A stretch of DNA of 59,690 nt from an uncultured Bacilli bacterium (GCA_904374795.1 CAJFEV010000001.1:1-59690); one strand, 5' to 3'; shown: positions 15,704 through 58,535, numbered from the stretch's first letter. Numbers and translations are program-made. Notes: generated by a model from the sequence alone, not told the origin.

Positions 15704-17482
15704 TCGCTTGGCGCACCTATATGCAGTCAAGCCAGTTTTTTTATCCTCGCTCGTTACGTGCAAGGATTCATTATACGTACTAAATTTATCATTTATTTTC
15801 TCTGAAATCAAGCCTTTTATATCTTCATTCGTAATTATTTCAGATGTTTTTAAAATGAATTGTATGCTTTTGTAATCAAAAGTACCGTCATCTAATTTTT
15901 TTCCAATCACAATCCTATCTACTAAAGCTTCAAATATGTCATCGTCAAATTCTTTTAATTCGCGTTTTTCTTCAATTATACTAATTATCTTATTCATTTG
16001 TGCAATTTTTTCACTTTTCAATTGAGAATGTTGATGTAATTTTTCTAAAGCCTCTTTTATTTCTTCGTGTTTTATATCTAATTCAGCCATTTTACTATCT
16101 AAAACTTGTTTAGATATTTTATTGTCTAGGGCTAAATCCAATAGTTTTGATTGTTTTTGTACAATCATATCACGTTCTTTTTCTAATGAATAAATTTCTT
16201 TTTCTATGTTATCTTTATTCAATACTGTATCTACATAATGTAAAAACTGTTTTACATACTTATCTTTATCACTATATAATTGATTAAATAAAAACACAAA
16301 CATTTTTTTTAGCTCTTCATCTTTATATTTAATTTTATTCTCACAAGAGATTTCATGAAATTGACTTCTACATCCCCAAAATATTACTCTTTCACTGTTC
16401 ATATCTTTTTTATTTTTTATATAAGATCTTCTTACAAATCGTTCTCCACAAAATCCGCAATAAATCTTGCTGCTAAAAGCGTATCTTCTACTATATTTAT
16501 CACGATGATTTTTAGATTTATCGCTTCTTTTTTTATACATTTCATGTGCTTTCATCCACAACTCCTTTGAGATAATTGCTTCATGTTTGTTTTCCGTATA
16601 CCATTGTTTAGATTGACCTTGATTCATTTTCTTTCTATGAGTTACAGGGCTTTCAACAAAGGTTTTTCCAGTACAAAGATCACCTAAATATTTTTCGTTA
16701 AATAGTAATCTTCGAATGGTAGATGGACTCCATCTTTTTCCAGTTGGACTAAGTATTTTGTCATTATTTAATCCTTTACAAATCCTGCCAGAACCATATC
16801 CTCGAGCATATTCTTCAAAAATCCTTTTAACGATTTTAGCTTTTTCAGTATTAATCTCCAAAGTTTTTGCTTCTTTATTCCAATCATAGCCATAACACTC
16901 AGGACATCCAACATATTCTCCACGTTTCATTTTCATTTGCAATCCAGACTTCATATTTTCCGAAATAGATTCACTTTCTGCTTGAGCAAACGCACTATAC
17001 AATGTTAAAAAGAGCTCATTAGTAACAGAAAAAGTATGTATATTTTCTTTTTCAAAAAATACATCAACATTATGTGATTTCAGCAACCTTACAATATTTA
17101 ATGTATCTACAGTATTTCTAGCAAATCTTGAAATAGACTTTGTAATGATCATGTCGATTTTCTCATTAAGCGCATCTTTTATCATTTTATTAAAAGAATC
17201 GCGATTTTTGGTTTGTGTACCAGAAAGACCCTCATCAGCATATATTCCTGCAAATTCCCAGTTTGGATTTTGCTTAATTAATCCATCATAATATACATAT
17301 TGAGAATGAAAACTTGTTTGTTGCTCTTCAAAATCAGTACTTACTCTAACATATGCAGCTACCTTTAAACGCATTTTCGTATAAGATTGTGCAAATTCTT
17401 TAGTTATTACATTTTTACTTTCTTTTAATTCATCAAAATTAATTTCTTTTGTTTTAAGTGTTTTATCTTCCATATTATTCAT
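15674..17482 (-). CDS. Large serine recombinase (integrase of the element)
   Basis: The resolvase catalytic domain has AAYVRVSTDFEEQQTS (nucleophile Ser) and ITKSISRFARN. A recombinase domain follows, then a zinc ribbon (CGFCGERF...WGCRS) and a long coiled-coil. The last 9 codons lie in host DNA beyond the junction. Confidence 0.9.
   Translation of the reverse strand: MNNMEDKTLKTKEINFDELKESKNVITKEFAQSYTKMRLKVAAYVRVSTDFEEQQTSFHSQYVYYDGLIKQNPNWEFAGIYADEGLSGTQTKNRDSFNKMIKDALNEKIDMIITKSISRFARNTVDTLNIVRLLKSHNVDVFFEKENIHTFSVTNELFLTLYSAFAQAESESISENMKSGLQMKMKRGEYVGCPECYGYDWNKEAKTLEINTEKAKIVKRIFEEYARGYGSGRICKGLNNDKILSPTGKRWSPSTIRRLLFNEKYLGDLCTGKTFVESPVTHRKKMNQGQSKQWYTENKHEAIISKELWMKAHEMYKKRSDKSKNHRDKYSRRYAFSSKIYCGFCGERFVRRSYIKNKKDMNSERVIFWGCRSQFHEISCENKIKYKDEELKKMFVFLFNQLYSDKDKYVKQFLHYVDTVLNKDNIEKEIYSLEKERDMIVQKQSKLLDLALDNKISKQVLDSKMAELDIKHEEIKEALEKLHQHSQLKSEKIAQMNKIISIIEEKRELKEFDDDIFEALVDRIVIGKKLDDGTFDYKSIQFILKTSEIITNEDIKGLISEKINDKFSTYNESLHVTSEDKKTGLTAYRCAKRLWVCNKWRK
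15691..15728. repeat. Left attachment junction (host arm, TC core at 15704-15705, element arm 15706-15728)
   Basis: The element arm GCTTGGCGCACCTATATGCAGTC is a 20/23 inverted copy of 58498-58520. The same TC dinucleotide is present at 58521-58522. Confidence 0.7.
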
Positions 17483-17503
17483 AACCTTTCTATAATATTG
17501 AAA

Positions 17504-17716
17504 TCAAACACTCACTAAAATTTTTTTAGATGATATAAAGTCTTGATACGGGATATATAATGCTATTTTTTTTAAATAATTTTCGTCGATTAATTTTTTT
17601 ATTCTTTTATATTCTTCTTCACTTATTACCATACTAATTTGTGATAGCATAGTTTTCATATAAACGTATTCTTCAATTATTTCCTTATATTTATCACTTC
17701 TTTCTCCGTAATTCAT
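17504..17716 (-). CDS. Small hypothetical protein directly upstream of the recombinase (candidate directionality factor; function unknown)
   Basis: 70-aa ORF with a GAGGGGGG RBS before MNYGERSD. The call rests on position only. Confidence 0.35.
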   Translation of the reverse strand: MNYGERSDKYKEIIEEYVYMKTMLSQISMVISEEEYKRIKKLIDENYLKKIALYIPYQDFISSKKILVSV

Positions 17717-17949
17717 AATACCAACCCCCCTCAACAGCCAGTATTACATACCCATATCAAATCTTCATAACAACTTTTTTAAATTTTTATACTCCATTTA
17801 TTCCAATTCCTCCATTGACAACAGGAACCCATTTAAAATTCTGTTAATTACGACAAAAGCAACAAAAAACATGTTGCTTTTGCTTTTAGCATGACGAATT
17901 TTAAATGCCTATTGTCAATGGATTTTCTCGGCATAAATCATACATTTCA

Positions 17950-18465
17950 CTATGTTTCTAACATTGTTTCATTTTCTTCATCAAAGCCAAAATATTCTTC
18001 TTGGTAATTTAATAGTTCATGAATTAACTCGTTAAAATCAAATTCTGTTTTTTCTACTTCATCAATTTCTGATATGTCATATAACGTTTCCATCAAAAAA
18101 TCTATTTTGTCATACAATTTCAGTTTGTAAAAAGATGACAACCCTGGTTCTATCGATTTTTTATTTTTTATATATGGTTCTATATCAATACCATTCAGAT
18201 CCAAAGTTATATTTTCCTTTTTGGCTGCTAAAATTAATAGTTCTGTTGCAAGTTTCATAGGATCATCAAAATTAATACTGTTTGAGTCTAATACTAATTT
18301 GTTATTATCGTAAGCAGTATCACTATCTAAATAATTTCCATCATTAATTAAACCATTCGTCAAGTGGTTTAATATTACACTCATAAAGTAAAGCTTATTA
18401 GAATCCTCCAGCTTTCTAAATTGAATTACTGCATCTTTTGTTTGCTCACTAATTTTTTCTTTCAT
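17950..18465 (-). CDS. Strongly acidic hypothetical protein
   Basis: GAAGGAGG RBS. By my count about 37 D/E versus 17 K/R in 171 aa. No ArdA motif recognised. Confidence 0.5.
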   Translation of the reverse strand: MKEKISEQTKDAVIQFRKLEDSNKLYFMSVILNHLTNGLINDGNYLDSDTAYDNNKLVLDSNSINFDDPMKLATELLILAAKKENITLDLNGIDIEPYIKNKKSIEPGLSSFYKLKLYDKIDFLMETLYDISEIDEVEKTEFDFNELIHELLNYQEEYFGFDEENETMLET

Positions 18466-18652
18466 AATCTTCCTCCTTCAGAAGCATTTTTAAGCCCGTA
18501 TTACGTTGATTAATTTTATGACGTCCAGTAGATAAAACGCTGGCATTACTCTAAATCACAATCTTATAAACAGTCTAAAAACGCTTTTTTGTTTCAAACA
18601 ATTTATCACTCAAATCCCCAAAAAAATCAAGTACTATTTAGCAAAAATATTT

Positions 18653-21600
18653 TTATAAATCTAGTTCATATTGTTTTGCATTTAATTCATTATCAAACAT
18701 TATTTGTTCTTCGTCTTGATCAATTCCTAATTCTTTATATATTTTATTTTTTTTCAACAATAATTCTTTTAATTCTTCTATTTTATTAAACGGTTTTTTT
18801 AACTCTTCTTGCGTTTGGCTTAATTTTTTATTAATTTTATCAATCGTTTCTATTTCAATAGTTTTGCGATTTTCAATATTTTTTAATACATTTTCAATTT
18901 TAATGATGTTTCCTAAAGAACTAGATGATGTTTCTATTGGATATTTGTATGCCCCCTTTAAATAAAAGTGAGATAAATTCATAACTTGGTCTTTACTTCC
19001 TACTATTTCAAAACCACTAATGTGTCCAAGAACTCTTTCCTCTAATTTTAAGATAGAATTTAATGTTGCAAACTTTTCACTAGCTTTAGAACGTTCATCA
19101 TATACCGTCCCCATGATTTCTATGCAAAAATTTTCGCCTGATGTATCAACTACCAATGGCAAGTCTTGCTCAATTAATTTTAAAATTTGTTTATGTTCAT
19201 TCAATTCTTTAGGATAATTTATTAATACGTCATTTTCCATTTCTTTTTTAGATGAATCATATTTGGCTTTTAATAGGGTAATTTGTTTTAATTCAGTTTC
19301 AACTTTAAACTTTTCCATAATGAGTGGATTTCCAGTTGCAATAGCTTTAACTTCAGAATAACTTAAAGCACTATTATCAACATCTTCCATGGTTCTAGCA
19401 CTAACATTAGAAGTCATAATTTGATTAATAAAGTTGGCTTTAGTTTCAATTAATTGATAGGAATATCCGTCAAATGAACTTTCCGTTACGTATCGAAAAA
19501 TCTGAACCTCTTCATTTTCATTTCCCTGACGAAGTATCCGACCTTCTCTCTGCTCTATATCACTAGGTCTCCATGGACAATCTAAATGATGCAATGCAAT
19601 TAATTTGTTTTGAACATTCATTCCAGCACCCATTTTAAAGGTTGAGCCTAGAAGTATTCTTATTTTACCTGTTCGTACATCTTCAAATAATTCAGCTTTC
19701 TTTTGTTCGGTATCAGCATCATGAATAAACGCTATTTCATTTTCCTCTACTCCATTTTTGATAAGCTTAGCTTTAATATCATCATAAATATTAAAACTCT
19801 TGTCTGCTTTAGGTGTAGATAAATCACAAAATACTAATTGAGTTAAATTGTCTTTCTTAGTATCGTTATATATCTGGGTTATATTATTAACTGCTAAATT
19901 TATTTTGCTATCAGGTAAATCAGGCATATTTTCATCTATTAATCGCAAATCTAGTGCAGCTTTTCTACCATCATTCGTTACCTTTAACATATTATCTTCA
20001 TATGGAGCTACAACATTATTTTTAATATCCTCACTACGTCGTACCAATTCTTCAATATACTGTGATAGCTCATTACTTTTTGGTGCCGAAATAATTTCAT
20101 AACGATTAAATTTCAGCTTTGGAACTGGCAACTGTAATGTTTTAGCTGTTTGAACATCAGCAATATTTTTAAACAAATTTAATAACTCTGGAACATTATT
20201 AAATTTTGCAAATCTAGTTTTATTTCTAAATCCACCATTATCAGGGGATAGTTCTAATGTTGTAATAGTTTGTCCAAAAACGCTAGCCCAACTGTCAAAA
20301 TACTCAAGTCCCATTTGTTTTAAAGTGTTATATTGCAAATATTTTTGCATAGTATACAGTTCTGCAATTGAATTTGAGATCGGTGTTCCTGTAGCGAATA
20401 CAACACAATTATTTGGTTTTAATGAATCCAAATATCTAATTTTCATATATAAATCGCTAGCTTTCTGACTGGCAACAGAGCTAATACCAGACACATTGGT
20501 CATTTTAGAAAATAGAGCTAAATTTTTAAATTCATGTGCTTCGTCAACAAATAAATAGTCCACACCTAATTGCTCGAAATTAATGGTTTCATCTTTTTTT
20601 TCTTCACTCAATAATTTTTGAAACTTTTTAGTTAGACCTTTTTTCATAGCTTCCATTTTTTTTACACTAAATCTTTCGCCATGTTCCATTTTAAGTCGTT
20701 CGATTGCCATTTCTATATTTTTTATTTCATTATTAATATGGTTTAATTGTAGTTCTTTTGAAACTGGTATTTTTTCAAAGGAACTGTGTCCGACTATTAC
20801 TGCATCCCATTCCCCTGTTGCTATACGAGTCATAAATTTTTGGCGATTAATCTTCTGAAAATCTTTTTTGGTTGCAACCAGAATGTGAGAAAAAGGATAT
20901 AATCTTACAAATTCTTTTCCCCATTGTTCTGTTAAATGATTGGGAACTATAATCATTGGTTTATTGGCAATTCCTAAGCGTTTCAATTCCATACATGCTG
21001 CAGCCATCTCAAAAGTTTTTCCAGCTCCTACACTATGAGCCAGTAGTGTATTCCCTCCTAGTAAAATACGAGCAATAGCATTTTTTTGATGAGTTCTTAA
21101 ATTTATATTTGTGGCCATTCCTTTAAATTCTAAGTATGATCCATCATATTCTCTCAAACGAATTGAGTTAAATTTTTCATTATAAATTTCTACCAGTTCA
21201 TTTTTTACATATTCATTTTTTAAAATCCAGTTTTTAAATTCTTCTTTAATTTCATTTTGCTTCTCACGTGCTATAGCAGTTTCTTTAGGATTAAAAATAG
21301 ATGCACCATCTTCAGTTTTATCGTAAACAGAAATATTTTTTAAATTAAGAGAGCACTTAATAAGTGTTAATGCGTCTGCTCTTTTTGTTCCCCAAGTTTT
21401 GGTATTTTTTACCTCACTATCAAATTGAACTCCTGATCTTTGTAATACCCATAAATTAGTTTCAGGCACATAATCAACAAACAAATAATCTCGATAGTAA
21501 TAGGAAATATCTAACAAATCAATACAAAACTTTTTTATGATTCTCGGAGGAATCCATACGGCCCCCAAAGAAATATCAATATCATCCACTGTCAATTCTT

Positions 21601-24600
21601 CAGGTTGCACTGCTTTTAAGGCTTCTATATTTTTATCCAAAGAACCTTTCTCATTTAATAATTCTGCTTGTTTTAACTTTTCTCTGACATTTCCTGATAA
21701 ATATTCATCAGCTACTACCCAAAAATCTTCACCACGTTCTTTCGATATTGACGGTTCTTTATAAACAATGCCATCTAATTGTTCTATTATTTGATCTTCA
21801 CTCATATTAATAAGGCTCTTCATAAATGATAAATCAACATAATTTCGTTCATGAATGGAAATTGTGAGTGCTTCCATTGGAGTTTCAGCTTGCAATAAGT
21901 CTTTTGATTTTCTAACGGTTCTCTTAAAAAATACATCCCCCTTTTTGTAAAGTACAATATCATTTTCTTTATATTCATCTTCAATAGAAGAAATCAGATA
22001 ACAATCTGGATCGTCGGAAAAAGCCTGTAAATTTGCTTTATTGTTAAGAAAACCATATTTTTCAACAAAAGAGTCATACTCAATTGTTAACTGCTTTTGA
22101 GCTATACCTAATTCCTCATCACTTCCATCACGTAATTGAACATCAAATACTTCTTTTAATTTATCACGTACCCTTATCATAGCTTTGATACGACTAGCTA
22201 TTTTTCCCTCTTGATTTTTTAGTGGAATCATAATTGAATCATTTCTCTGATATAATGTGTCTTCTATTAATACATAAGCATTATTTTTTAGGTTAGGAAG
22301 TGCTGGAATGATGTCTTGCTGATTTTTGTCTTCTAACTCAACCTGAGTATAAATGTTTGATTTAAAAGAGTCAACCACTTTATCTAACAACTCATCAAGC
22401 GTAACATCATCAAATGAATGCAACGAAGTATTTTTTTCGTTACCATACATGGAAGCGTCAAACTCCATTTTTCCGAGTAACATTTCTGGATGTTCTAAGT
22501 AGTAATTATTTATAGGAATTCCATCTTCATTCTGACTAACATTTAACCATGAAGGATAAGTAGACAAATCCAATTTGTCTCTTTTTTTAAGAAAAATCAC
22601 ATCTGATGATACTTTAGTGTTGGCTATTTCTTGAAATGTGGTATTTGGTAAACGAAAGGCGCCAATTAATTCTGCACGTTCAGCAATATATTTTCGTATG
22701 CTGTTATCAGCTCTATCTAAAGTACTTGTAGAAGTTATAAAAGCAACAATGCCTCCTGCTCGAAGCTTATCTAAAGTTTTCTGAAAATAATAATCATGAA
22801 TCAAAAAATTACTATTTTTATATTTTCTATCAAAAACCGAAAAATTTCCAAATGGAATGTTACTAATCGCTAAATCAAAAAAATTATCTTGAAAATTGGT
22901 TTCTTCATACCCATTTATCTCTATATTCGCGTTAGGATATAACATTTTAGCGATTCTACCACTAATATTATCAAGTTCAATACCATAAAGTTTTGATTTT
23001 TCGAATTGTTTAGGAATATTTCCAAAAAAATTTCCAATACCCATTGAGGGTTCTAAAATATTACCATTTCTAAAACCAAATTTTTCAATTATTTTCCACA
23101 TTGCTTTAATTACATTATTTGGAGTATAAAAAGATGTTAGAGTTGACTCACGTGCCTTTTCATAATCCGTTTCATCTTCGCCATTAATTAATAATCCTCT
23201 TAATTCTTCATATTCATTAGACCAATCATTACGTGTAGAAGAAAATGCACTTGCTATTCCTCCCCAACCCGAATATTTTGCTAAAATATCTTGTTCTTCT
23301 TTAGTGGGCATTTCATTGTTTTTTTCCAATTTTTTTAAAAGTCTAATTGCTGCAACATTGTTTTTGTACTTTGTTTTTTCACTACCATATGTAATATTAT
23401 TTTCAATATAATAATTGCTGTTTGAAATTTCTTTTTCTTCATGATTATCTAATTTGTTTCTATCAGTATCATAAGAAGCTATTTCTTTGTCAGATAGCTC
23501 AACGACGCTTGTAGGAGTATTTGTTTGTTCAACTACTTGATAAAATGGTTCTTGTTGATCAATGGAGTTTTCTTCTTGAGAACTATCACTTTCAAATAAA
23601 TCCAAAACTTGTTGTTCTTTCTCTTTTTTACTAGATACACTTTTTATTTTGGAAAATGGAGAAAGTGAAATTGTAATTTCTTTTTGGGGATATTCAGCTT
23701 GTGTTGTTTTTATCGAAAATACATCTTCTTTTTTAATTTTTTTGCTTTCTATAAGATTATCTAATAGATTGGTAGCTTGCTCTATATCTTCCAAAGTTTC
23801 ATAATAATTCTCAATAAATCTTTTATCATTATCTATTTTATCAATTAGCTCTTTCAGTTCATCTAAAGGATATTTGTCATACACAATATCTAAAAATTGA
23901 TAAGCCATATCCAAATCGGTTATATGATAAACATTATTTAATATTTTACTTTTATTCGATTCTAGGTTTTCTAATTTTCGTAAAAGATTTTTTTCTGGAA
24001 ACTCTCTATTAGCAATTAAAATTTGATAAAATTCATATACTTTATCCCAATTATATTCCATTGGCAACTCATATTCATCATTAGGATAAATAGTTATTCC
24101 TTTTGAATCATAATCAACAAAACCACTCTCTCCATCTAAATAAGTATAAGAATAACCACCTGTTCCAAAAGACTCTTTTAATTTTTTTATTGCTTCTTTT
24201 TTATCAGAAACTGTTGTTATAATACGATAAATTACTTGATCACCTTTAGAAAAATTATTTCCGTTTTTTAACAAATGTTTTAGCTCTTTCTCTTCTTCTG
24301 ACTCCTCTAAAGAAAAAAGTGAAGATTGCAAAGCAATTATTGGTTCTCGTTCTTGATTGATTTCTTCACTACTCTCTTCACTTAACTGAATAGGACTTTT
24401 TTCTAAAGGTTCTAATTTTTTTTCTAAATCTTTGATTTTAAACATTAAGTTTTTATAAAAATAATATGCTGTATCTAATAAATAGGAATTATTATCATTG
24501 CCATTCAAAAATAAATATTCATCTGCTAAGTTATCAATAATATAATCACATCGATTTAAAACTAATAATGCTGTTACACATGATACAAATGACTTTTCTG

Positions 24601-25027
24601 AATCAGAAAACCCATATTGCTTTTTATCAATCATTTTAAGACTAATATCATAAATTGTTTTATAAAAATTTTTATCTTCTTCATCATTTTTATCAAGATT
24701 ATCTAAATTATATTCACTAATCAGATTTTCAAGAATTACTGGTGTTTTCCTTTTATTAAATAATGAAAAATTTATAGTTCTTCCCCAAGTTTGTGATATA
24801 TCAAAAACTACTATTTTCCATTGATTATCTGTTAATATACGATACCCGTGTTCTCCTCTTTTTATACGTCTACCATTACGATTCCAATCATCATATGTAG
24901 CAAACTTTTTGCCTTTACCATCAGTTAAATTATACAAATTTAAAACATTATCATAGCTATAGTAACTTGCTTTGTAAAATTGAGAAGCAAATTTTATAAA
25001 TTTAAGAAGAGTGTCCTTATCATTCAT
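18653..25027 (-). CDS. Giant polyvalent protein: ArdC-N-like ssDNA-binding domain, N6-adenine DNA methyltransferase and SNF2/DEAD helicase
   Basis: The N-terminus ([24 protein letters not shown]...VVFDISQT) is ArdC-N-like. Methylase motifs are [11 protein letters not shown] (motif I) and SNIPFG (motif IV). Helicase motifs are [20 protein letters not shown] and [11 protein letters not shown]. The start at 25027 follows AGGGGGA and overlaps the sortase stop (ATGAATGA). Confidence 0.85.
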
Positions 25028-25610
25028 GTTTTTCCCCCTGTACAACTATTCGAACACTGTTGTCTTGCGGATTACATGTAATCAATGTAATTTTATCTTT
25101 GCCTTCATTCTCTATTGGTTTGTTATTATACATAGAAACTTCTGAAACGTTAGAAACCTTATAAACATATTTAACATTATGATAATAAATATAGATTTCA
25201 TCTTCTATTTTCAAATTCCAAATGTTTTTAAAATAAGAAGTTCGACTATTCCCGCTATGAGCAAACAAAATAAAATTTCCGTGTTGATCTGGCATAGTTG
25301 AAGTTGGATATATGCTTACATTTCGGTCCATCGTAGTGAAAGAAGAATTACTCATAACTATTCCAGTCTTTAAATTCAAACTCGGTATTTCTATTACTGC
25401 AAGATAGGAATTGATATAATTTTCAGAATCATTTGTTTTTGAATCATTTTTACTCATATTTACATTATCGGATTGATATTCAGATGCAAAAAAATCTTCT
25501 AACATTTTTTCATCTTCATGTGCATATTGTATATCCTGATAAAAGCTAAAACTTAATATAGTAAATCCTATTAAAAAAAATACAACACCTAACATTAATG
25601 CCTTTCTCAT
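25020..25610 (-). CDS. Sortase (cysteine transpeptidase)
   Basis: N-terminal TM anchor, His in FILFAHSGN, catalytic Cys in ITLITCNP, and Arg in VRIVVQG. Confidence 0.75.
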
Positions 25611-46073: not shown

Positions 46074-46149
46074 TATTTTTTGTACATTTTCATAGTATCT
46101 TTAATACTGTTTAAAATATTTTTTCAAAATTCATAAGATCTTTATCAAT

Positions 46150-47978: not shown

Positions 47979-47995
47979 ATTATAATCACACCTTT

Positions 47996-48619: not shown

Positions 48620-48741
48620 TTACATCCTCCTTTTCTAAAAAAATTAAGTTTATTTTACTTCCATATCACCTTTTCCTTTCTCATAATGCAATATCTAATT
48701 CATGACTTAGATATTGTCAAAACTATTTTATATAAAATTTC

Positions 48742-49455: not shown

Positions 49456-49485
49456 ATAATCCCTCTCTCTTCTACTGATTCAAAC

Positions 49486-49530
49486 TTATCATAAAATCAA
49501 GAAAAAAGGTAGTGCCAATTTGGCACCACC
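49486..49530 (-). terminator. Rho-independent terminator inside the repeat shared with 10685-10729
   Basis: On the minus strand, GGUGGUGCC-AAAUU-GGCACUACC is followed by U6CUUG. It overlaps the last codons of the 49489-50595 ORF. Confidence 0.5.
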
Positions 49531-50595
49531 AGTTTTTTCCAAATATTGCCAAATCGGCACTATACTGATTTTAAATATTTTTCTACATAATTCATTATAT
49601 ATTTTTTCAGCATTTTCACAGTTTCCTTCTATACAATTAACTTGATTGTCAACAACTTCAAAATCAGTCAATGTTTTTAAATTAAAATAAGAAAAAACAT
49701 TCAAATTCAAATTATAAGTATAATTTTCTTCCGTATTATTTACAAAAAACAAACCAGAATTATATGTCAAAAGAAAATCATCAGTTTTTAAAACACAATT
49801 GTCATTTTCATCACATTGAAAAGTTTCTTTAATTTTTATAGGTGTCTCAAATTTTTTCATTTCTTGTTCTTTTCCAATCTCCTTTTCTTCTACATATACA
49901 AAATTATTATTTGAGACTTCTTCAATAAAATTTAGTGTAATCTCTTCGTTACCAATTCTCACAAAAATTTTTTGATTACCACTAATAAAATCATTATATG
50001 AAATAAAACTTTCATACCCATAATTGTCTTGTATAAGAACTTGATATTCTCCATCATAAACTAATCGTCTTTCTTTGTTTGTCTCAATAAAAATTTTAAT
50101 ATTTTCTACTTCTGGAGCAATACTACCTATTTGAAAATAAATTTTTTCTTTAGATAAGACTAATAAACCATTAGTTAGCTCATAAGATGGAGATGAGCCG
50201 GAAAATGTATAGATTTTCATCGTATCATAGTTTTGAAAAAAGTATAATATTATTAGTCCTATAAAACTAATTACTACAAATATAGCGAGTAATATAGCTA
50301 TAAATCGAGCTTTTTTAAATTTTGAATTTTGATTTTGCAAATACTTAAAAAGTGAATTTTGTAATTTTTTTTCATTTTGTTTATTTTTTCTTTCGCAAGC
50401 TGTTAACTCATCTAAAGAAATATCAAAAATTTGACTATAATATATCAAATCATCAAAAGTTGGGCGCCGTTTATTATTTTCAAGACGATTTATCTTCGAA
50501 TGATCCACATGCATTTGCTCTGCTAAATCATATTGAGACATATTTTTACTTAATCTTAAATCCTTTAAAAATGGTCCAATCTTATTATAATCCAT
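49489..50595 (-). CDS. Membrane-bound XRE-family HTH regulator with an extracellular domain
   Basis: The N-terminal HTH_3 (LKDLRLSKNMSQYDLAEQMHVDHSKINRLENNKR) is followed by TM segment FIAILLAIFVVISFIGLIILYFF and a ~230-aa outside domain. Confidence 0.7.
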   Translation of the reverse strand: MDYNKIGPFLKDLRLSKNMSQYDLAEQMHVDHSKINRLENNKRRPTFDDLIYYSQIFDISLDELTACERKNKQNEKKLQNSLFKYLQNQNSKFKKARFIAILLAIFVVISFIGLIILYFFQNYDTMKIYTFSGSSPSYELTNGLLVLSKEKIYFQIGSIAPEVENIKIFIETNKERRLVYDGEYQVLIQDNYGYESFISYNDFISGNQKIFVRIGNEEITLNFIEEVSNNNFVYVEEKEIGKEQEMKKFETPIKIKETFQCDENDNCVLKTDDFLLTYNSGLFFVNNTEENYTYNLNLNVFSYFNLKTLTDFEVVDNQVNCIEGNCENAEKIYNELCRKIFKISIVPIWQYLEKTGGAKLALPFFLIL

Positions 50596-50608
50596 ATAAC
50601 AGTACACC

Positions 50609-50685
50609 TCAGCAAAAGTATATCATGGACAAACCGAAACTTAAAGATTTAAAAGCCATAATCTACTTTTGATTATGACCATTTT
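50609..50685. repeat. Copy A of a ~77-bp terminator-promoter cassette
   Basis: About 95% identical to 51202-51279. On the minus strand it reads CATAATC-AAAAGTA-GATTATG hairpin, a U-rich tail, then TGATATACT (extended -10). Confidence 0.6.
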
Positions 50686-50814
50686 TAATTTTATTTTGAA
50701 TTTCTGGATATATTTTTAAAATTACTTCTTACGGTAAGAAATTTGTTTTTAATGATTAGTTAAAACTTCAAAAAAAGTTTCGTTTTCATTTAATACTTTT
50801 CTTGAACACAATCA

Positions 50815-51141
50815 TCATTCTTTTATTTCACTACCTATTTCTTTATATTTTGCTAAACATTCTTCAACAGCGTCTTTTCTAATCAATGTAAAATAAATTT
50901 TATCTTCGTCATCTTCCGTATCTAAAATATTTTTGATGGCATCCAATTTATTCTCTAACCATTCCATAAAATGTTTTTGAAGTTTTTCTTTATCTTCAAG
51001 TTTTTTCTGTAATTCTTTATTTTCTTGTTTCATTATATCTATATATTTTTGTATTGTTAACCAACTTTCATACGCGTCTGTATTATCTAATTTTTTGGTT
51101 AATTTGCATGATAATTCTTCCAACATTTTTTCATTCATCAT
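50815..51141 (-). CDS. Small coiled-coil hypothetical protein
   Basis: 108-aa K/E-rich ORF with a GGTGAGG RBS. It is flanked by the duplicated cassette. Confidence 0.45.
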   Translation of the reverse strand: MMNEKMLEELSCKLTKKLDNTDAYESWLTIQKYIDIMKQENKELQKKLEDKEKLQKHFMEWLENKLDAIKNILDTEDDEDKIYFTLIRKDAVEECLAKYKEIGSEIKE

Positions 51142-51201
51142 TCTACCTCACCTAATCTTAAATTTTTTAAAAATGAATTGTAATCTACAAAATAATACGC
51201 A

Positions 51202-51279
51202 TCAGTAAAAGTATATCATGAACAAACTGAAACTTAAAGATTTAAAAAGCCATAATCTACTTTTGATTATGACTATTTT
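51202..51279. repeat. Copy B of the terminator-promoter cassette (begins at the HelD-like gene stop codon)
   Basis: See copy A. It overlaps the stop codon at 51273-51275. Confidence 0.6.
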
Positions 51280-53411
51280 CGATATAAACTTCTAGCTAAA
51301 GGCTTAGTAATTGGTTCTTGATATAAAATTTCTAAATCGTGTAAAGCACGAGTCATTGAGACATATAAGTTTTTTAAGTCAGTATTATTATCAGATGAAT
51401 ATGTTTTCTCACTTACGTTTGCAATAATAACTGCATCAAATTCTAATCCCTTTGAACATTGACTACTTATAGAACAAATACCACCTTCGTATACACTATT
51501 ATTCATATTTATATACGATATATTTACTCCTAGTTGTTGTAATTTAACTGCAATTTGATTAGCCTCTTCTTCAGTACGACTTATTACAGCAATTGATGAA
51601 AAATTCTGTGCAATTAAACCTTCTATTTTATTTTTTAATAATTGAATATCGTTTGGATTATACAATGTATACCTTACATCTTCACCATGTCTTATAACAG
51701 GCTCAGAAACTTTCATATTTAAATAATCTAAAATTTGATTAGCCTGTTCCATAATCTCAATAGTAGTACGATAACTTTTTAATAAATAGTCAACATTGCA
51801 TTTATTATTAAAACATGCTTTTTCTACTTCTTCCCAATTATCAATACTTCTATAGTCATAAATAGATTGAGCTAAATCCCCGAAAATACTAAATGTACAA
51901 CTTGGCAAAGCTTTTTTTAGAGCATAGAAATTGAATACTCCATAATCTTGTGCTTCATCGATGACTGCATGACGGAATTTTTTATATTCTTGAGATCCAT
52001 GTAATAATGTATGTAAATAAACAATACCTGGTAAATCTTCAAAAGTAATTCCTTTTTTAATTGGTATAGTAATTTTTTTTAAGCTATCATTCACTTCTCT
52101 ATCTGCAAATTGAGATAGTTTCGTTAAAAAATTATTATATATTGTTGATGTTTTTTTGCTTTTAATTGAAAAATGTTTTCTTAAGGATGCCACACATCCA
52201 CTTTCTATTTCTTTCTTTAAAGCTTGATATTCCTTTTGATATTTTTCTTTTGTAATATTTCCAGCATCCATTTTTTCCTGATATTGTTGATTTACTGATG
52301 AAACCAATTTAGAAGAATTATTCTTAATATAATTTGACAATAACAATACGCATCTTTCAATTTTCATTTCTATATTATCATATATTTTATCTTGAATTTC
52401 TTGATATGTTTTTAAAATTGCCTCTTTAGGTAATATTTTAATATTTTTGATTGTAAAGTCTTTACCAGGAACAACTTCATATTCATCTAAATATTTTACA
52501 TATTTGTCTATTAGTTCTTTAAAATCCATAGACATTTTGAAATGATATGGATTTACACCATTTATAACATCAGGATTATATCCTATATCATCAATACTAA
52601 TTTCCTCACCAATAAATTCTTGTGCAAATTCGGGATATGTAAGCTGCGGAACACTAGTTACATCTAATTCTGGCAGAACAGACGAGATGTAATTAATAAA
52701 GAATTTATTTGGTCCTATTACCATATATTGGTCAGATTTAATTGTTTCCCTAAAGTTATAAGCCAAATAAGCAATTCTATGTAAAGCCACAGTAGTTTTT
52801 CCTGAACCAGCTACTCCTTGACATATTGTATTGTTAGTAATAGGTTCTCTTATAATTGTATTTTGTTCATTTTGTATAGAACTAACTATATTTTTCAAAC
52901 GATTATCTGCATTTACTCCTAAATATGGTTTTAAAATTTCATCATTAGAAACCGTGTCTACATCTCGATAGGATAACAACTCACCATTTTCAATTTCATA
53001 TTGACGTTTTAATTCCATAGTTCCACTTATTGTTCCCTTAGGTGCTTCATAACTTGCTGGTCCTATATTGCTATCATAATATAAAGATGCAATAGGAGCA
53101 CGCCAATCAACTGTAATTATATTACCATCACTGTCTACTACTCCTACTTTTCCAATGTAGCAAACTTCTTTTCTATGTTCATCGTCTGAAGTAAAATCAA
53201 TACGAGCAAAATATGGTTTTTGAAATCCATTTTCTAACACCTTTAATTTATTTTCATATTGGTCCATTAAATTATTATAAACAATAGGATCCATAACATT
53301 TCGTCTTTTTAATGAATTAATCATCAATTCTACATCTTCATATACATGATGTAGTTCAGATATAACAGATTGTGTTTTTTCTTTTTCTAATTCAAATTCG
53401 TGTTTTTCCAT
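51273..53411 (-). CDS. HelD-like (helicase IV / UvrD-superfamily) RNA-polymerase-associated ATPase
   Basis: N-terminal coiled-coil, then KPYFARIDF...YIGKVGV...VDWRAPIASLYY (HelD N-domain signature). Walker A GVAGSGKTTVALHR and Walker B VIDEAQD. The ATG at 53411 follows AGGGGGA. Confidence 0.8.
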   Translation of the reverse strand: MEKHEFELEKEKTQSVISELHHVYEDVELMINSLKRRNVMDPIVYNNLMDQYENKLKVLENGFQKPYFARIDFTSDDEHRKEVCYIGKVGVVDSDGNIITVDWRAPIASLYYDSNIGPASYEAPKGTISGTMELKRQYEIENGELLSYRDVDTVSNDEILKPYLGVNADNRLKNIVSSIQNEQNTIIREPITNNTICQGVAGSGKTTVALHRIAYLAYNFRETIKSDQYMVIGPNKFFINYISSVLPELDVTSVPQLTYPEFAQEFIGEEISIDDIGYNPDVINGVNPYHFKMSMDFKELIDKYVKYLDEYEVVPGKDFTIKNIKILPKEAILKTYQEIQDKIYDNIEMKIERCVLLLSNYIKNNSSKLVSSVNQQYQEKMDAGNITKEKYQKEYQALKKEIESGCVASLRKHFSIKSKKTSTIYNNFLTKLSQFADREVNDSLKKITIPIKKGITFEDLPGIVYLHTLLHGSQEYKKFRHAVIDEAQDYGVFNFYALKKALPSCTFSIFGDLAQSIYDYRSIDNWEEVEKACFNNKCNVDYLLKSYRTTIEIMEQANQILDYLNMKVSEPVIRHGEDVRYTLYNPNDIQLLKNKIEGLIAQNFSSIAVISRTEEEANQIAVKLQQLGVNISYINMNNSVYEGGICSISSQCSKGLEFDAVIIANVSEKTYSSDNNTDLKNLYVSMTRALHDLEILYQEPITKPLARSLYRK

Positions 53412-53433
53412 TACACATCCCCCTTTCAAAATT

Positions 53434-53871
53434 TTATTTTTTATAATTCAATTTTTTTAAAGCATACCAAGCAAATGGTGATAACTGTTCTTCATTTAGT
53501 TCTTCAATTGGCAACCAAACAGCTCCATCAGAATCAAGACCATCAGCATCAATTTTTAAATTTTCTTCCTTAATATCAACAAGATACAAAATTCCAATAT
53601 GATGTAAATCTTCTGTTACATTTTCTTCCATAAGCCATTTAATATTAGTAGAAGTTGCATCTAATAATTCTTCTTTAATAACAGTTCCTTCTACTTCTTC
53701 CATCATTTCTCTATGTAGAGCTTCGATAGGTGTTTCGGTATGTTCGATACCTCCACCTGGAAGATCATATTTCCCCTTATAGCCTCCTCTAGCCTTTTTT
53801 ACAAGAGCTATTTTACCATCTCGTATTAAAATGCCATAAGCTCCTACATGTGTTTTAACAATAGTTTTCAT
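53434..53871 (-). CDS. NUDIX hydrolase
   Basis: Near-canonical Nudix box GGGIEHTETPIEALHREMMEEVEG. Confidence 0.85.
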   Translation of the reverse strand: MKTIVKTHVGAYGILIRDGKIALVKKARGGYKGKYDLPGGGIEHTETPIEALHREMMEEVEGTVIKEELLDATSTNIKWLMEENVTEDLHHIGILYLVDIKEENLKIDADGLDSDGAVWLPIEELNEEQLSPFAWYALKKLNYKK

Positions 53872-53921
53872 ATATTTCCCTCTCTTTCATTTCCTTACAA
53901 ATTTTACCATACGATCTTATA

Positions 53922-54818
53922 TTATTCAAATAATACTTGCGTTAAATTCAAATCATTTAATAAATTATACCACTTTTCCCAGCCATCCTTTTTTTGGCGA
54001 GGATCACTTAAATCAATTTTGCCCATTTGATATAAAGCAATTTTTTCTAAAATAACTTTTAAAATGTAAAACTCCCACATACATTTTAGATTTTGAATAC
54101 TTAAATTCATTTGATTTTCATATTCTTTTAGTAATTCCTTAGCTAACTGAATATCAAAGTCATTATAATGAAAACATAATTTTATAACAGAACTAATAAC
54201 TTCATACTCTTGTGTCGCAACAATAGCTTCATCAAAATCAATTAAATAAAGTGTATGATTTTTCCATAACATGTTTTGCGAAGATAAATCACCATGTACT
54301 AAATAAAAATTTAAGTTTGAAAAATCTAATGATTCATATTTAGTAATAAGTTCATATATTGTTTTTTTGTTTATTTTATATGTAGCTATTTCTTTTAAAT
54401 ACCGTACATAATAATTTACTTTAGCAAAAATATTATCATTTTGATAGTCCTTAATAGACACTTTCTTATCTAATAAACTAACTGTTTTAACAAGCAAACA
54501 AATATCATTAATTTTAAGCTTTTTTTTATGGTATCCATCAATAAATTCATATAAATAAAATAATCTATTATTAATTTTTTGTTTAGTGATCTCAATAGGA
54601 ACATTAATATTCTGTTTTAAGCAGTGAGCTAGTAAATCTTTTTTACATCTTTTATTATATTTTCCCACATATTCTTTTAAAAGGTAATTATTATCACTCG
54701 TAATAACTTTATAAACTTTATTTGTAATACCATACTTCATTCTCTTTAATGCAATAACATTTGAAATATTGGTATTTTCAAAAAATTTTTGAATATCTCT
54801 ATCTGTTTCTAAATTCAT
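53922..54818 (-). CDS. APH/choline-kinase-fold phosphotransferase
   Basis: VHGDLSSQNMLW (HGDxxxxN catalytic loop) and LIDFDEA (DFD metal-binding motif). Confidence 0.75.
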   Translation of the reverse strand: MNLETDRDIQKFFENTNISNVIALKRMKYGITNKVYKVITSDNNYLLKEYVGKYNKRCKKDLLAHCLKQNINVPIEITKQKINNRLFYLYEFIDGYHKKKLKINDICLLVKTVSLLDKKVSIKDYQNDNIFAKVNYYVRYLKEIATYKINKKTIYELITKYESLDFSNLNFYLVHGDLSSQNMLWKNHTLYLIDFDEAIVATQEYEVISSVIKLCFHYNDFDIQLAKELLKEYENQMNLSIQNLKCMWEFYILKVILEKIALYQMGKIDLSDPRQKKDGWEKWYNLLNDLNLTQVLFE

Positions 54819-55980
54819 CTTGAGCCTCTTTATATACTTCTATCATTTTAGTTACTATTCTCTCATTTGAAAACACATCATGAATTATTTTATAACATTT
54901 TTCAGCAATTTCAGATTTTTCGGGATTGTTATACAGTTGAATAATTTTATGAGCCAATTCCTCGATATTATCATGTTTAAAAAATATTTCTGGACATTGT
55001 TTTTGCATTAATTCAGAAAAACCAGTGTTATCGCTTATAAGTATAGGTAATCTAGTACTTATTTCTTCTAATGCTACATAAGGTAAATTATCAAACTGCG
55101 ATGGAACAATACCAATACAACTTTTGTTCATATAATCATTCAGTTGCTCATGGGGCATTTGATAAAAGAATTTTAAATGTGCATGATATTTTGACTTAAC
55201 TATACTTTTAATATATTCAATAGTAGAAATTGCTCGATTATTTCTAAAAGTATCTTTCCCAATAAACCAAAAATTTAAATGTTTGGTAGTTTCATTTTCA
55301 AGAATTATATTAATAGCTTCTGCTAAAACTAGTACGCCTTTTCTTTCTTCTATACTACCACAATACAAAACATTATTACTTTGATGAAAAGGCTCTTTTA
55401 AATAAAAATTATTAAAATCAGCTAAATTTGGAACTACTTCTACATTTGTTAATTTAATTTGATGTTGGGTAATAATTTTATTAATAAGCAACTGAGAACA
55501 TGAAATAACTTTTTCAGCATTTTCTATGCAATATTTTTCCCACTCTAACACTGCATTATTAACTTCGCTTGATAATCCACTTTTGTTATATTCTTGCCAT
55601 ACACACAACGGAGTATGCAATTTTACAACAACTGGAATTTTTCTATTTTGTTTCTTTAGATAAAATATTGTTTCTGCACCCCAATCTGGCGTTTCAATTA
55701 TGTCTATTGATTCTTCTTTTTCCAAATCCTCAATAGTAAAACATACTTTTTTTCTATAATCAATATAATCATCTAAAGTATTTGCATTTAATGGCCTAAA
55801 TATTCGAATAATATGAACTCCGTTTTCCACGGTACTGCTATCTTTTTCCAAAGATCTAGCAATAACATATACAGTATGACCAATCATGGCCATATTCTCA
55901 GCTAAACGTTTTTGATAAGTTGCTATACCTCCAAAATTTGTTTCTTCTGGATATTCTTCATGAACATAACAAATTTTCAT
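54799..55980 (-). CDS. GT4-family (GT-B, retaining) glycosyltransferase
   Basis: N-terminal FGGIATYQKRLAE and C-terminal PSQFDNLPYVALEEISTRLPILISDNTG (E-x7-E region). It overlaps the downstream kinase gene by 20 nt. Confidence 0.8.
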   Translation of the reverse strand: MKICYVHEEYPEETNFGGIATYQKRLAENMAMIGHTVYVIARSLEKDSSTVENGVHIIRIFRPLNANTLDDYIDYRKKVCFTIEDLEKEESIDIIETPDWGAETIFYLKKQNRKIPVVVKLHTPLCVWQEYNKSGLSSEVNNAVLEWEKYCIENAEKVISCSQLLINKIITQHQIKLTNVEVVPNLADFNNFYLKEPFHQSNNVLYCGSIEERKGVLVLAEAINIILENETTKHLNFWFIGKDTFRNNRAISTIEYIKSIVKSKYHAHLKFFYQMPHEQLNDYMNKSCIGIVPSQFDNLPYVALEEISTRLPILISDNTGFSELMQKQCPEIFFKHDNIEELAHKIIQLYNNPEKSEIAEKCYKIIHDVFSNERIVTKMIEVYKEAQDEFRNR

Positions 55981-56582
55981 TATTTTACTCGCTTTCTTAC
56001 ATTAGGCTCAAAGCCAATTGCTTCCTCAGCTACTCTATATGTTTCTTCTTTATTACTTACATCTGTATATATAGTTGCTAACGAAAATTGAGATACTTCG
56101 TTAAAATACTTTTCATGATCTTCCAAAGCACTTTCTACACGGTAACGTATATCTGAAGCATTATGATTTCTACTTGAATTCACTATGCGTTCTCTAATTC
56201 CTTTTTCAATATCTTGAAAAGTTAAAACGACTAACCGAACTGGTATTTCTAAATGTTTTAATTGCAATATATCTTTATATGACGAATTTATTAACAAAGT
56301 ATCTGCATTCTCAAACGCATTAAAACAGTCGTTTTTCAAAACTCCATATCCGCGAATGCCATCACTTGAAGCAATTAAGAATTGTTGATTGTTTACTAAT
56401 TTCAAAAACTCCAAATATTCAATGTAACGGTAGAAGCCAGGTTTATCATCACGCCTAGCTTCTCTTGTCGTTACATGTCGCGGTACAATAATGTCATGAT
56501 TTAAAATCAAATTGTCCGTCAAAGTCGTCTTGCCACTACCTGATGGTCCCATAATACTCACTATTACTTTATCCTCTTTCAA
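55980..56582 (-). CDS. Guanylate-kinase-like P-loop kinase
   Basis: IMGPSGSGKTTL followed by HVTTREARRDDKPGFYRY (GMP-kinase-type TTR..R motif). I place the start at the TTG 4-5 nt after GGGGTGA, because the track's upstream TTG lies inside the predicted promoter. Confidence 0.65.
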   Translation of the reverse strand: MKEDKVIVSIMGPSGSGKTTLTDNLILNHDIIVPRHVTTREARRDDKPGFYRYIEYLEFLKLVNNQQFLIASSDGIRGYGVLKNDCFNAFENADTLLINSSYKDILQLKHLEIPVRLVVLTFQDIEKGIRERIVNSSRNHNASDIRYRVESALEDHEKYFNEVSQFSLATIYTDVSNKEETYRVAEEAIGFEPNVRKRVK

Positions 56583-56604
56583 ACTATCACCCCACACAGC
56601 GACT

Positions 56605-56633
56605 AGTATAAATGCAAAAGTATGTTTAGTCAA
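56605..56633 (-). promoter_or_regulatory. Near-consensus sigma-A promoter of the 5-gene cargo operon
   Basis: Minus strand TTGACT-17 nt-TATACT. Confidence 0.45.
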
Positions 56634-57018
56634 CAAAAAATATCGTATTTAGTAGCATTTTTGTGTGTAAAAACATTTTTTCATTTTGTTCTCTTTCAGA
56701 TTTGTAAAATTAATTTCATTCAATCCTAAGAATGATCGTATAATTTTTTCTGTTATAATATTTGTTTAAAACTAAAATACTTACATCTTTCAATAATCTT
56801 ATTTATTGTTTTGGATAATTTAGTAAAATCCAAAAAGTTTTATAGTCATTTTATTCATACTTTTATGATAATTGACCATAATATAAATAATCTATTTGAA
56901 TTAAGTATTCCATCAAAAAATTTCTATGTTTTTCACGATAATTTCTGCCAAAATATCGTATATGGTTGCAAATGAACTGATGGACAATTTTAAATGAGAA
57001 AATGTTTTCGGTGATTGT

Positions 57019-57471
57019 ATGAACTGTGATAATAGACTATTTTTTATTAGGGAACATCTAGATTATACTCAGGTGCAAATGGCAAAAAAGTTAGGAGTAA
57101 GTCGTGCTTATTATTCTTTATGTGAGACTAATACTAAATTTATGACTTTAAATAGACTAAATGATTTCTGTAACATTTTTCAAGTTGATATAGATTATGT
57201 GTATTATTTAACTAATAAGAAAACCAACAACACTAAAAAAATCAATAAAATCAATCCTAAAACCGTCGGAAATAATTTATGTACAATATTAAAGGACAAC
57301 AATGTTACTCAAAAAGAAATAGCACAATTTTTAAATACAACTCAATCTACAATTTCTAGTTATTGTAACGGACACACAATAATTTTAACATCATTTGCTG
57401 TTCAATTAGCCAAAAAATATTCCTTTTCACTTGACTGGTTAATAGGTAGATCCGACACAAAAAAATTATAA
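57019..57471 (+). CDS. Transcriptional regulator with two XRE-type HTH domains
   Basis: IREHLDYTQVQMAKKLGVSRAYYSLCE and LKDNNVTQKEIAQFLNTTQSTISSYCNG. Confidence 0.65.
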   Translation: MNCDNRLFFIREHLDYTQVQMAKKLGVSRAYYSLCETNTKFMTLNRLNDFCNIFQVDIDYVYYLTNKKTNNTKKINKINPKTVGNNLCTILKDNNVTQKEIAQFLNTTQSTISSYCNGHTIILTSFAVQLAKKYSFSLDWLIGRSDTKKL

Positions 57472-57722: not shown

Positions 57723-58016
57723 TATTCTTTCCTTCCTATTTTACTTTTTTCTCATTTTGAGTATCATCTAAAGTTACCATTAGTGTTCCCTTTGAATTTT
57801 TTATAATAATTGAAGTTTCTGGATGATCCGTTGAACTAATTGTAAGAACTTCATTCAAATCAAGAGAAATATGCGTTTCTTTTGCTTTTTTAGTATCTGC
57901 CATTTTAATCACCTCCTATCCTTACTATCTATAATACCACAAATATAGTCAGGTGCATTTATTAAATGTAGTACATTTAACACATCTTCATTGGATAATT
58001 GTACTAGGTGGTTAAA

Positions 58017-58256
58017 ATGAAAATCAATAAAAGTGATAATAAATATATTTATGTCATTGCTGGAAAAAATATTAAAAGAATTCGAGAAGAAAAAGGATTA
58101 ACTCAGGTTCAACTAGCTGATTTAATAAAATATAATGAGGGGACAATTTCAAATATAGAGAATGACAGTTTTCAAACATTTAGTTTAGAATTTTTATATA
58201 TTATTTCAAAAAAGTTAAAAGTACCTATGAGCGAATTTTTTAAAGAAATAGACTAG
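58017..58256 (+). CDS. XRE-family HTH regulator (candidate element repressor)
   Basis: IKRIREEKGLTQVQLADLIKYNEGTISNIEND. The ATG at 58017 lies 5 nt after TAGGTGG. Confidence 0.7.
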   Translation: MKINKSDNKYIYVIAGKNIKRIREEKGLTQVQLADLIKYNEGTISNIENDSFQTFSLEFLYIISKKLKVPMSEFFKEID

Positions 58257-58305
58257 AATAACTTTACTTTAATTTATATAAAGAATTATTAATATAAAAA
58301 TTAAG

Positions 58306-58339
58306 GACCCTATTTAAATTATAGGCTCCTTTTTTTCTT
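58306..58339 (+). terminator. Rho-independent terminator
   Basis: AGGACCCTAT-ttaaatt-ATAGGCTCCT (10-bp stem, one mismatch) followed by T7. Confidence 0.6.
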
Positions 58340-58497
58340 CAATAATAATTACTTCCAATATATTTATTTAGTGAGTGTTTTATACTATTAATGAAGTAAC
58401 TAACTCAACTTTGTCCACCAATACAACTTTATTACCGTAATTCTTTCTTTCATTAACATTAAAACTAGATTTATTAAGTATTAAAGTTGCAAAAGTG

Positions 58498-58535
58498 GAC
58501 TGCATATAGGTGCACCAACTTCACTAGGATACATG
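58498..58535. repeat. Right attachment junction (element arm 58498-58520, TC core 58521-58522, host arm)
   Basis: GACTGCATATAGGTGCACCAACT is the inverted partner of 15706-15728. The host arm continues as ACTAGGATACAT, which reads MYPS on the minus strand. Confidence 0.7.

Follow-up and report, generated by a model that had tools for sequence, protein, structure and literature searches.

Evidence for a 42,817-bp integrative conjugative element inserted at a GA dinucleotide into a multi-copy protein gene of uncultured Bacilli

We analyzed a stretch of 59,690 nucleotides from an uncultured Bacilli bacterium (GCA_904374795.1, CAJFEV010000001.1:1-59690), referred to here as the window, and conclude that positions 15706-58522 very likely constitute an integrative conjugative element (ICE) that was integrated by its own large serine recombinase into an attachment site (attB) in a host gene, via exchange at a GA dinucleotide. 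A first-pass annotation of the same DNA had placed a large serine recombinase gene at the left end of this block. The gene is found there on the minus strand (15674-17482), encodes 602 amino acids (aa; 599 aa from a second possible ATG), and carries the domains PF00239, PF07508, and PF13408. With a single TC kept upon removal, the size of the element is 42,817 bp.

On the + strand, the junction on the recombinase side reads ...CATACCCATAA-TC(15704-15705)-GCTTGGCGCACCTATATGCAGTC(15706-15728), and the junction on the far side reads GACTGCATATAGGTGCACCAACT(58498-58520)-TC(58521-58522)-ACTAGGATACAT.... In their surroundings, positions 15690-15728 are ...TTGCATACCCATAA-TC-GCTTGGCGCACCTATATGCAGTC... 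and positions 58498-58537 are ...GACTGCATATAGGTGCACCAACT-TC-ACTAGGATACATGAG.... Both junctions that the first-pass annotation had written out for the minus strand occur exactly, as reverse complements of these sequences. Its description of the ends as a 20/23 inverted repeat is likewise accurate: the two 23-bp arms, GCTTGGCGCACCTATATGCAGTC at 15706-15728 (attP half-site P, located within the 3' end of the recombinase open reading frame [ORF]) and GACTGCATATAGGTGCACCAACT at 58498-58520 (half-site P'), agree at 20 of 23 positions, and the similarity ends beyond them. The proposed crossover dinucleotide, GA on the minus strand and TC on the + strand, adjoins each arm in one copy, the first (15704-15705) at the 3' part of the host gene and the second (58521-58522) at its 5' part.

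As reconstructed from these arms, attP is a site of about 48 bp with imperfect dyad symmetry (arm-GA-arm), for which the predicted joint is the 48-mer GACTGCATATAGGTGCGCCAAGCGAAGTTGGTGCACCTATATGCAGTC. The attB, as seen in the uninterrupted contig L011 described below, is ATGTATCCTAGT-GA-TTATGGGTATGCA, and its comparison with both junctions leaves GA as the sole common sequence, which is the signature of the 2-bp staggered exchange performed by serine integrases. Long direct repeats are absent from the element ends, and the identity shared by attP and attB is limited to these 2 bp. We also considered a shifted half-site motif common to attP and attB; TGCATA recurs, but its spacing differs between the attB halves, and we make no claim for it.

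The window is AT-rich (28% GC), and a generic inverted-repeat scan returned 101 pairs of at least 20 nt without singling out the terminal repeat, so that repeat length by itself is not the evidence. The scan was discarded as a test of the ends, and a test of the arm core was used instead. The exact 16-nt core GCACCTATATGCAGTC has two occurrences in the window, one per arm and in inverted orientation, where 0 are expected by chance (100 dinucleotide-preserving shuffles). The terminal repeat is convincing because of the composition of the arms, together with their independent placement by the empty site.

The interrupted host gene consists of a 3' part at 15388-15705 (minus strand, 105 codons and the stop, as defined by in-frame reconstruction) and a 5' part at 58521-59690 (minus strand), which runs past the edge of the window. 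Removing 15706-58522 while keeping one TC produces a continuous in-frame minus-strand ORF, ...EWIGSIGLMYPS|DYGYATSGGNNIDR..., which reads ...IGLMYPS|DYGYATSGG... around the join. To compare this locus with its relatives, we recovered contigs L009-L012, L014, and L015 from other samples by look-up of the neighboring SpoU-methylase protein. Compared over 494 residues, the reconstructed host protein and the 568-aa product of the intact gene in L011 agree at all but one (493 identical), which bears out the earlier suggestion that the flanks are two halves of one host ORF, since the same combination forms a single gene there. Moreover, the empty site predicted from the junctions has an exact 77-nt match in the metagenome contigs L011 and L015, both of which have flanks 99.66-99.9% identical to the window. 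By blastn, positions 7824-8993 of L011 align with 59690-58521 of the window (99.9% identity) and positions 8992-19430 with 15705-5256 (99.66% identity), and the two alignments share exactly 2 bp on L011, the GA. The two flanks are joined in these near-identical genomes at precisely the site at which the element was predicted to have entered.

Both of these contigs have the gene order DUF2207 gene, full-length target gene, YgjP-like gene, with no insertion; the target gene is 568 aa long in L011 and is interrupted by the contig end in L015. In L009, L010, L012, and L014, the element is present at the insertion site of the window, the sibling L009 being 99.995% identical to the window over 20.7 kb. 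Occupancy of the site is polymorphic among near-identical strains.

A protein search with the host protein returned a truncated N-terminal product (P0001) at 99% identity, as well as many full-length homologues of approximately 560 aa that span the junction, among whose best-conserved stretches is the motif GLMYPSDYGYATSGG. We entertained the idea that the halves are two different paralogues fused by rearrangement, the C-terminal half being closest to P0023 and the N-terminal half to P0002/P0003, and rejected it because P0023 lies at another locus and because L011 and L015 hold the same N- and C-terminal combination as a single gene. The target family is large, with 5827 matches and several paralogues per genome. 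Searches of Pfam and NCBIfam with the target family gave no match; its N-terminus (...SFAYFS...) resembles a SipW-type signal peptide, and the family appears to comprise diversifying surface or secreted proteins. Rfam and tRNA scans of the whole window found no RNA, and therefore the target is not an RNA gene.

The same ends occur at other sites and in other species. Scanning the GTDB representative genomes with the arm pattern yielded six matches in four species-level metagenome-assembled genomes named "uncultured Bacilli bacterium", and further junction contigs, including some from other metagenomes, were recovered via recombinase variants. The recombinase-end arm followed by GA is present in L009, L010, L012, L014, L019, L020, L024-L029, L034, and L035, and adjoins eight distinct host sequences (those of the window, L019, L020, L024 [same as L028], L025/L026, L027 [same as L029], L034, and L035). 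The far-end arm followed by TC is present in L001-L003 and L021-L023, and adjoins four (window, L021, L022, and L023). In translation, seven of the eight flanks at the recombinase end read D(Y/F)(G/A)(Y/F)AT..., and each of the four at the far end reads ...G(L)(M/I)Y(P/A)S. Therefore, the crossover occupies codon positions 1 and 2 of the Asp in a shared motif, across genes that are divergent at the nucleotide level. The block ends at the same nucleotides in all of the at least eight independent insertion contexts recovered. Across species-level genomes, L024 is 99.4% identical to the window over 4 kb of element DNA, and unoccupied attB-like sites are found in paralogues and other alleles (L004-L008, L013, L016, and L023).

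The remaining recombinase-end context is that of L034 (4746-4887, ERZ28614826 scaffold_13564), a near-identical copy with a GA junction whose flank, CTGCGGATATACC..., of which about 115 nt are available, has no DYGYA motif; it is probably a secondary integration site. Separately, contigs L020, L021, L023, L002, and L003 end 27-160 nt inside the element ends. Such breaks are expected, because assembly graphs branch if several contexts, or occupied and empty states, share a sample.

More distant relatives preserve the arrangement. Three elements whose recombinases are 54-66% identical to that of the window retain the order SNF2 protein, 160-171-aa ORF, 70/71-aa ORF, recombinase, and end at ...CAAGC-GA, beyond which the DNA encodes the C-terminal portion of a protein of this same family (SDYALASG..., SEVVYAGG..., and SDFGFATSGG...). 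Since the ends and the target are shared with diverged relatives, the end points and the target are properties of the element family.

From this arrangement we infer the following mechanism. The recombinase would join the near-palindromic attP of about 48 bp (P-GA-P') with attB (B-GA-B') by a 2-bp staggered exchange at the GA, attB being the DNA that encodes the conserved ...(L/I)(M/I)Y(P/A)S|D(Y/F)GYA... motif of a large multi-copy protein family; given the size and copy number of that family, many sites exist per genome and across species. The recombinase gene lies at one end of the element and reads outward, its last codons comprising one attP arm. Excision would reverse this exchange, presumably aided by a directionality factor, and would restore the host gene exactly while yielding a circle. 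Transfer of the circle would then rely on the relaxase and the VirD4-type coupling protein, together with a Gram-positive type IV secretion system whose parts would be VirB4, the VirB6-like and the pilin-like protein, an M23 hydrolase, and a sortase-anchored adhesin.

The resolvase, recombinase, and zinc-ribbon domains of the recombinase span residues 41-189, 213-319, and 336-395, and the motif YVRVST supplies the catalytic serine (S48). Among PDB entries, the catalytic domain matches 3g13 best, a "putative conjugative transposon recombinase" from C. difficile (E = 7e-52); the protein also aligns to the TP901-1 and phiC31 integrases, and profiles of CcrB, CcrC, and XisF match it below their cut-offs. 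Directly upstream lies a small conserved ORF (17504-17734, minus strand; 70 aa according to gene callers), and next to it a conserved 171-aa ORF (17950-18465, minus strand), the position of which is conserved in relatives. Both are positional candidates for an excision/directionality factor. In L035 (28-453), an IS200/IS605-type Y1 transposase gene stands in place of the 171-aa ORF upstream of the recombinase.

No stop codon closes the recombinase ORF within the element: it continues across the arm and the crossover and is terminated after 10 codons of host sequence. This read-through of arm and GA holds for every family member examined except L019. Since the attP arm forms the last codons of the gene, the C-terminal tail changes with each integration site; in the recombinase cluster (at least 90% identity), 10 different tails follow ...AYRCAKR among the 12 members read, and the site-dependent tails of integrated copies are 5-25 residues long. 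In the circular form, the ORF is predicted to be extended by a fixed 37 codons, ...RSWCTYMQSTFATLILNK..., for a total of 639 aa. In L019 (2971-2995, CALVPL010000131.1), the arm ends ...CCAAGT-GA instead of ...CCAAGC-GA, so that the stop TGA overlaps the crossover and the protein would be identical whether integrated or circular.

Immunity that depends on integration is known from mycobacteriophages, and by analogy the state-dependent C-terminus might serve as a built-in sensor of the integrated versus the free element, tuning how stable the enzyme is or in which direction it acts. We regard this as improbable. The stop at the crossover in L019 argues that the tail is dispensable, and the far-end sequence is nearly invariant among copies, which leaves a test of coding constraint on the circular-form tail without power. 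An exchange of the C-terminus as such has already been described for rumA-targeting ICEs (PMC4701971).

The region between the recombinase module and the cargo encodes, on the minus strand, the proteins expected for conjugative transfer. Closest to the recombinase module is a 2130-aa polyvalent protein (18653-25045) with an ArdC-like N-terminus, a DNA methyltransferase region (oMTase and MTase_II at residues 629-817), and an SNF2 helicase (DrmD- and BrxH-like helicase region), a combination typical of conjugative elements. The SNF2 gene is broken into three ORFs in L012 (1-6044). A sortase follows (25020-25610; PF04203, with TIGR01076 above cut-off and the class C, D, and E sortase models below theirs), then the VirD4-type coupling protein (T4CP; 25856-27968), whose two halves of 337 and 376 aa match PF02534, PF12696, and PF10412. 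Two unknown proteins of about 400 aa each stand between the T4CP and a putative relaxase (30743-32104), which is adjoined by a small Arc-like protein. The relaxase assignment is weak: MobL scores 28.6 bits (cut-off 28.5), a MobA/VirD2 nuclease domain is matched, and MobP2 gives E = 1.4e-11 with 44.7 bits against a cut-off of 200.

Beyond the relaxase are an M23 peptidoglycan hydrolase (32940-33839; PF01551, with DD-endopeptidase profiles below cut-off) and an 819-aa VirB4-like ATPase with an overlapping upstream 101-aa VirB3-like ORF that matches the N-terminus of the VirB4 profile (together 34069-36814). VirB4 matches NF045975, the Mbov_0397 family of Mycoplasma ICEs, with E = 4.9e-145 and 484.5 bits against a cut-off of 590, and its nearest plasmid relatives are from Spiroplasma (28% identity); judged by these scores, it is a relative of the Mbov_0397 family and not a member. 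A 474-aa VirB6-like transmembrane protein, matching the pLS20_p028, MMCAP2_0566, and Mbov_0396 profiles, and a 111-aa pilin-like protein, matching the Mbov_0395 pilin-like profile and PF18895 T4SS_pilin, occupy 36841-38610. They are followed by an LPD28-domain protein and a single-strand DNA-binding protein (38675-39532; PF18843 and PF00436), and by a 1018-aa surface adhesin (39534-42590) with a thioester domain, seven SpaA-type domains, and a C-terminal LPQTG sorting signal (...LPQTG, a hydrophobic stretch, KKQKKKEGK).

The full Gram-positive transfer module of the first-pass annotation is thus there as a gene set, but the T4CP gene is frameshifted in this copy and the relaxase is only tentatively assigned. 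These are among several points that weigh against an ICE capable of excision and transfer. A homopolymer with one A too many (A9; T9 on the + strand, 26972-26980) divides the T4CP gene in two. The putative relaxase has no match among the PLSDB plasmids and scores at or below the curated thresholds, and the VirB4 and VirB6-like matches fall below the NCBIfam curated cut-offs. No directionality factor is identifiable, neither the 70-aa nor the 171-aa ORF having a family match (the latter in Pfam, NCBIfam, and PHROGs). The attP joint pattern was not found in the metagenome contig collection, a negative that is weak and uninformative because that collection holds only two integrated copies of the element, and neither the 636-aa nor the 639-aa circular-form recombinase was present in the protein collection by exact look-up. 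The near-identical copies at eight or more sites and in four species-level genomes nonetheless lend mobility indirect support. In consequence, the palindromic attP proposed earlier stands as far as the 20/23 inverted arms are concerned, but its circular joint was not found in assembled collections. Finally, all hosts are uncultured and all of the evidence comes from assemblies.

The frameshift raises the alternative that this copy is a decayed ICE, whose intact ends and recombinase would probably still allow it to excise but which, with a truncated T4CP, would need a helper for transfer. Here, the A9 run divides the protein into pieces of 337 and 376 aa, and the truncated 337-aa product is found on ten contigs. 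Deleting one A (A8) gives a 703-aa T4CP, which occurs with exactly this sequence on seven other contigs. Since the 337-aa and 703-aa forms are both recorded, both T4CP alleles exist; this copy could carry either a genuine frameshift allele, a slippage-prone tract, or a homopolymer/assembly error, and owing to the frameshift it may not transfer itself. Against decay, the lesion amounts to a single homopolymer base, as might arise from misassembly, from a sequencing error, or from reversible slippage. The longest contig with the intact 703-aa T4CP (59,954 nt) is equal in size to the contig of the sibling L009, and the other genes of the transfer module are all open. We consider decay of this copy a possible, though less likely, reading.

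Because the insertion lies within a coding sequence, and excision would restore the frame exactly, the element may also be viewed as a domesticated gene-interrupting switch of the skin, SPbeta, or fdxN-element type, in which excision, programmed to occur under particular conditions, restores the gene of a secreted protein and conjugation is secondary. The weak XisF profile match of the recombinase would fit such a switch. However, near-identical copies sit in at least eight different genes and in several species, occupancy differs from one near-identical strain to another, the target family has multiple copies, and a transfer module is present. These observations point to a mobile parasite and together make a domesticated, fixed developmental switch very improbable.

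The element has a large serine integrase and Xre-type regulators, both of which are frequent in temperate phages. Two Xre-type helix-turn-helix (HTH) regulator genes lie at the far end (57019-57471 and 58008-58256, + strand); the order of element genes along transcription (minus strand) begins with this end and finishes with the two small ORFs and the recombinase. Nevertheless, a prophage or phage-like satellite with a serine integrase is hardly credible: we searched ORFs of at least 80 aa against Pfam and ten of the ORFs without Pfam annotation against PHROGs, and found no capsid, terminase, or tail gene, as the first-pass annotation had also noted, and no portal gene. Unannotated ORFs lie at 28244-30721, 42597-44876, and 47289-49455. 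Furthermore, no copy of the arm sequence is present in IMG/VR, and genes for a relaxase, T4CP, VirB4, and a pilin-like protein are present. The earlier preference for an ICE over a prophage, based on the absence of capsid, terminase, and tail genes, is supported. A transposase domain was also not found within the element (Pfam).

Although AT-rich DNA with 101 inverted pairs of at least 20 nt could produce repeats by chance around a non-mobile island or an assembly chimera, we give this explanation almost no weight, as the 16-mer core is expected 0 times by chance, the boundaries agree to the base with an independent empty site, and they recur in independent assemblies from many samples.

Between the transfer genes and the far end, the element carries a cargo/regulatory region (43501-56636) that includes a nucleotidyltransferase (+ strand), an acyltransferase, a metallopeptidase, and an HTH-zincin regulator (49489-50607). 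At 51273-56636 (minus strand) is a cluster of five genes encoding a UvrD-like helicase (UvrD/GajB-like), a NUDIX protein that is the PADLOC candidate PDC-S07, an APH/RIO-like kinase, a GT4-conflict glycosyltransferase, and a P-loop kinase-like protein that is guanylate-kinase-like. The cluster has no match to any defined defense system; it may be an uncharacterized defense or DNA/nucleotide-modification module. Outside the element, the left flank (1-15334) is all on the minus strand and holds ordinary housekeeping genes: rlmN-like, fmt, priA, a HAD-family gene, trmD, rimM, the SpoU methylase gene, and the YgjP-like gene. The target locus between the DUF2207 and YgjP-like genes carries very different alleles even though its flanks are 98-99.9% identical: one 568-aa gene; genes of 128, 124, and 515 aa; or a 208-aa gene (L011 7603-9309, L013 2203-4708, L017 8648-9274, and L018 6883-7509).

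Among known systems, phage large serine integrases (phiC31, Bxb1, TP901-1, and A118) use a 2-bp non-palindromic crossover, a dyad attP of about 50 bp, and a shorter, dissimilar attB. The recombinase described here shares their architecture of resolvase, recombinase, zinc-ribbon, and coiled-coil parts, and the element shows the same 2-bp crossover, dyad attP of about 50 bp, and shorter dissimilar attB. In contrast to the phage integrases, its vehicle is conjugative, a single enzyme naturally uses many attB variants, and attP overlaps the coding sequence of the enzyme.

One parallel is Tn5397 of C. difficile. Its recombinase, TndX, cuts at GA in the element ends and in the target with a 2-bp stagger, leaving one GA in the joint, and strongly prefers DNA coding for a Fic domain while using other sites when that is absent (PMC4430133, PMC3672683). 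As in Tn5397, we find one large serine recombinase, GA at every junction, a conserved coding motif as the target, and one site outside the family (L034). Unlike Tn5397, which is 21 kb long with a Tn916-type module and a Fic target, the element here measures 42.8 kb, has a core of the Mbov_0395-0397/pLS20_p028 type, and targets a family with the YPSDYGYA motif. A Tn916-type conjugation module was not encountered; the conjugation proteins have their matches in the Mbov_0395-0397 and pLS20_p028 families and among VirD4-type T4CP profiles.

A second parallel is provided by streptococcal ICEs with a single serine integrase, in which repeats lie in rumA and in the integrase gene, so that integration swaps 3' parts and gives each of the two proteins a changed C-terminus, much as in CTn5 of C. 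difficile (PMC4701971). The present element resembles these in having the integrase at its end, the attachment site in the 3' end of that gene, very short direct repeats, and an intragenic target. It differs from them, with their Tn1549, Tn5252, or vanG-type modules and rumA target, in its module, its target, and its uncultured Bacilli host.

With regard to the secretion core, the best matches of VirB4, the VirB6-like protein, and the pilin-like protein are to Mollicutes systems (Mbov_0395/0396/0397 of Mycoplasma ICEs, and Spiroplasma plasmids) and to pLS20. However, all of these matches are below cut-off, with VirB4 at 28% identity, and the element differs from the Mollicutes systems in its site-specific serine recombinase, as well as in its sortase, LPQTG adhesin, and M23 hydrolase, functions that are unneeded in a wall-less host. 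The transposase of the Mycoplasma ICE (MICE) is of the DDE type. MICE is described as having a Mutator-like transposase and no preferential insertion site (PMC6030558).

Altogether, every architectural feature of the element has published precedent, and it extends the known Tn5397 and rumA-type ICE pattern while leaving current understanding unchanged. What is specific to it is the target family, the host lineage, a secretion core with distant relatives in Mollicutes and pLS20 that is paired with a clostridial-type integrase, and the breadth of attB variants. Cleanly bounded and from a low-GC lineage, it offers an unusually full set of natural data, with one attP, one near-invariant integrase, at least eight attB variants, one off-family site, and an observed empty site, which would be useful for studying the attB tolerance of a serine integrase, or as an integrase/att pair for genome-engineering toolkits. 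For the biology of these bacteria, the data show a very recent spread of one element across several species-level genomes, and they connect two features, a Mollicutes/pLS20-like secretion core and a clostridial-type serine integrase, in a host with genes for enzymes of cell-wall synthesis.

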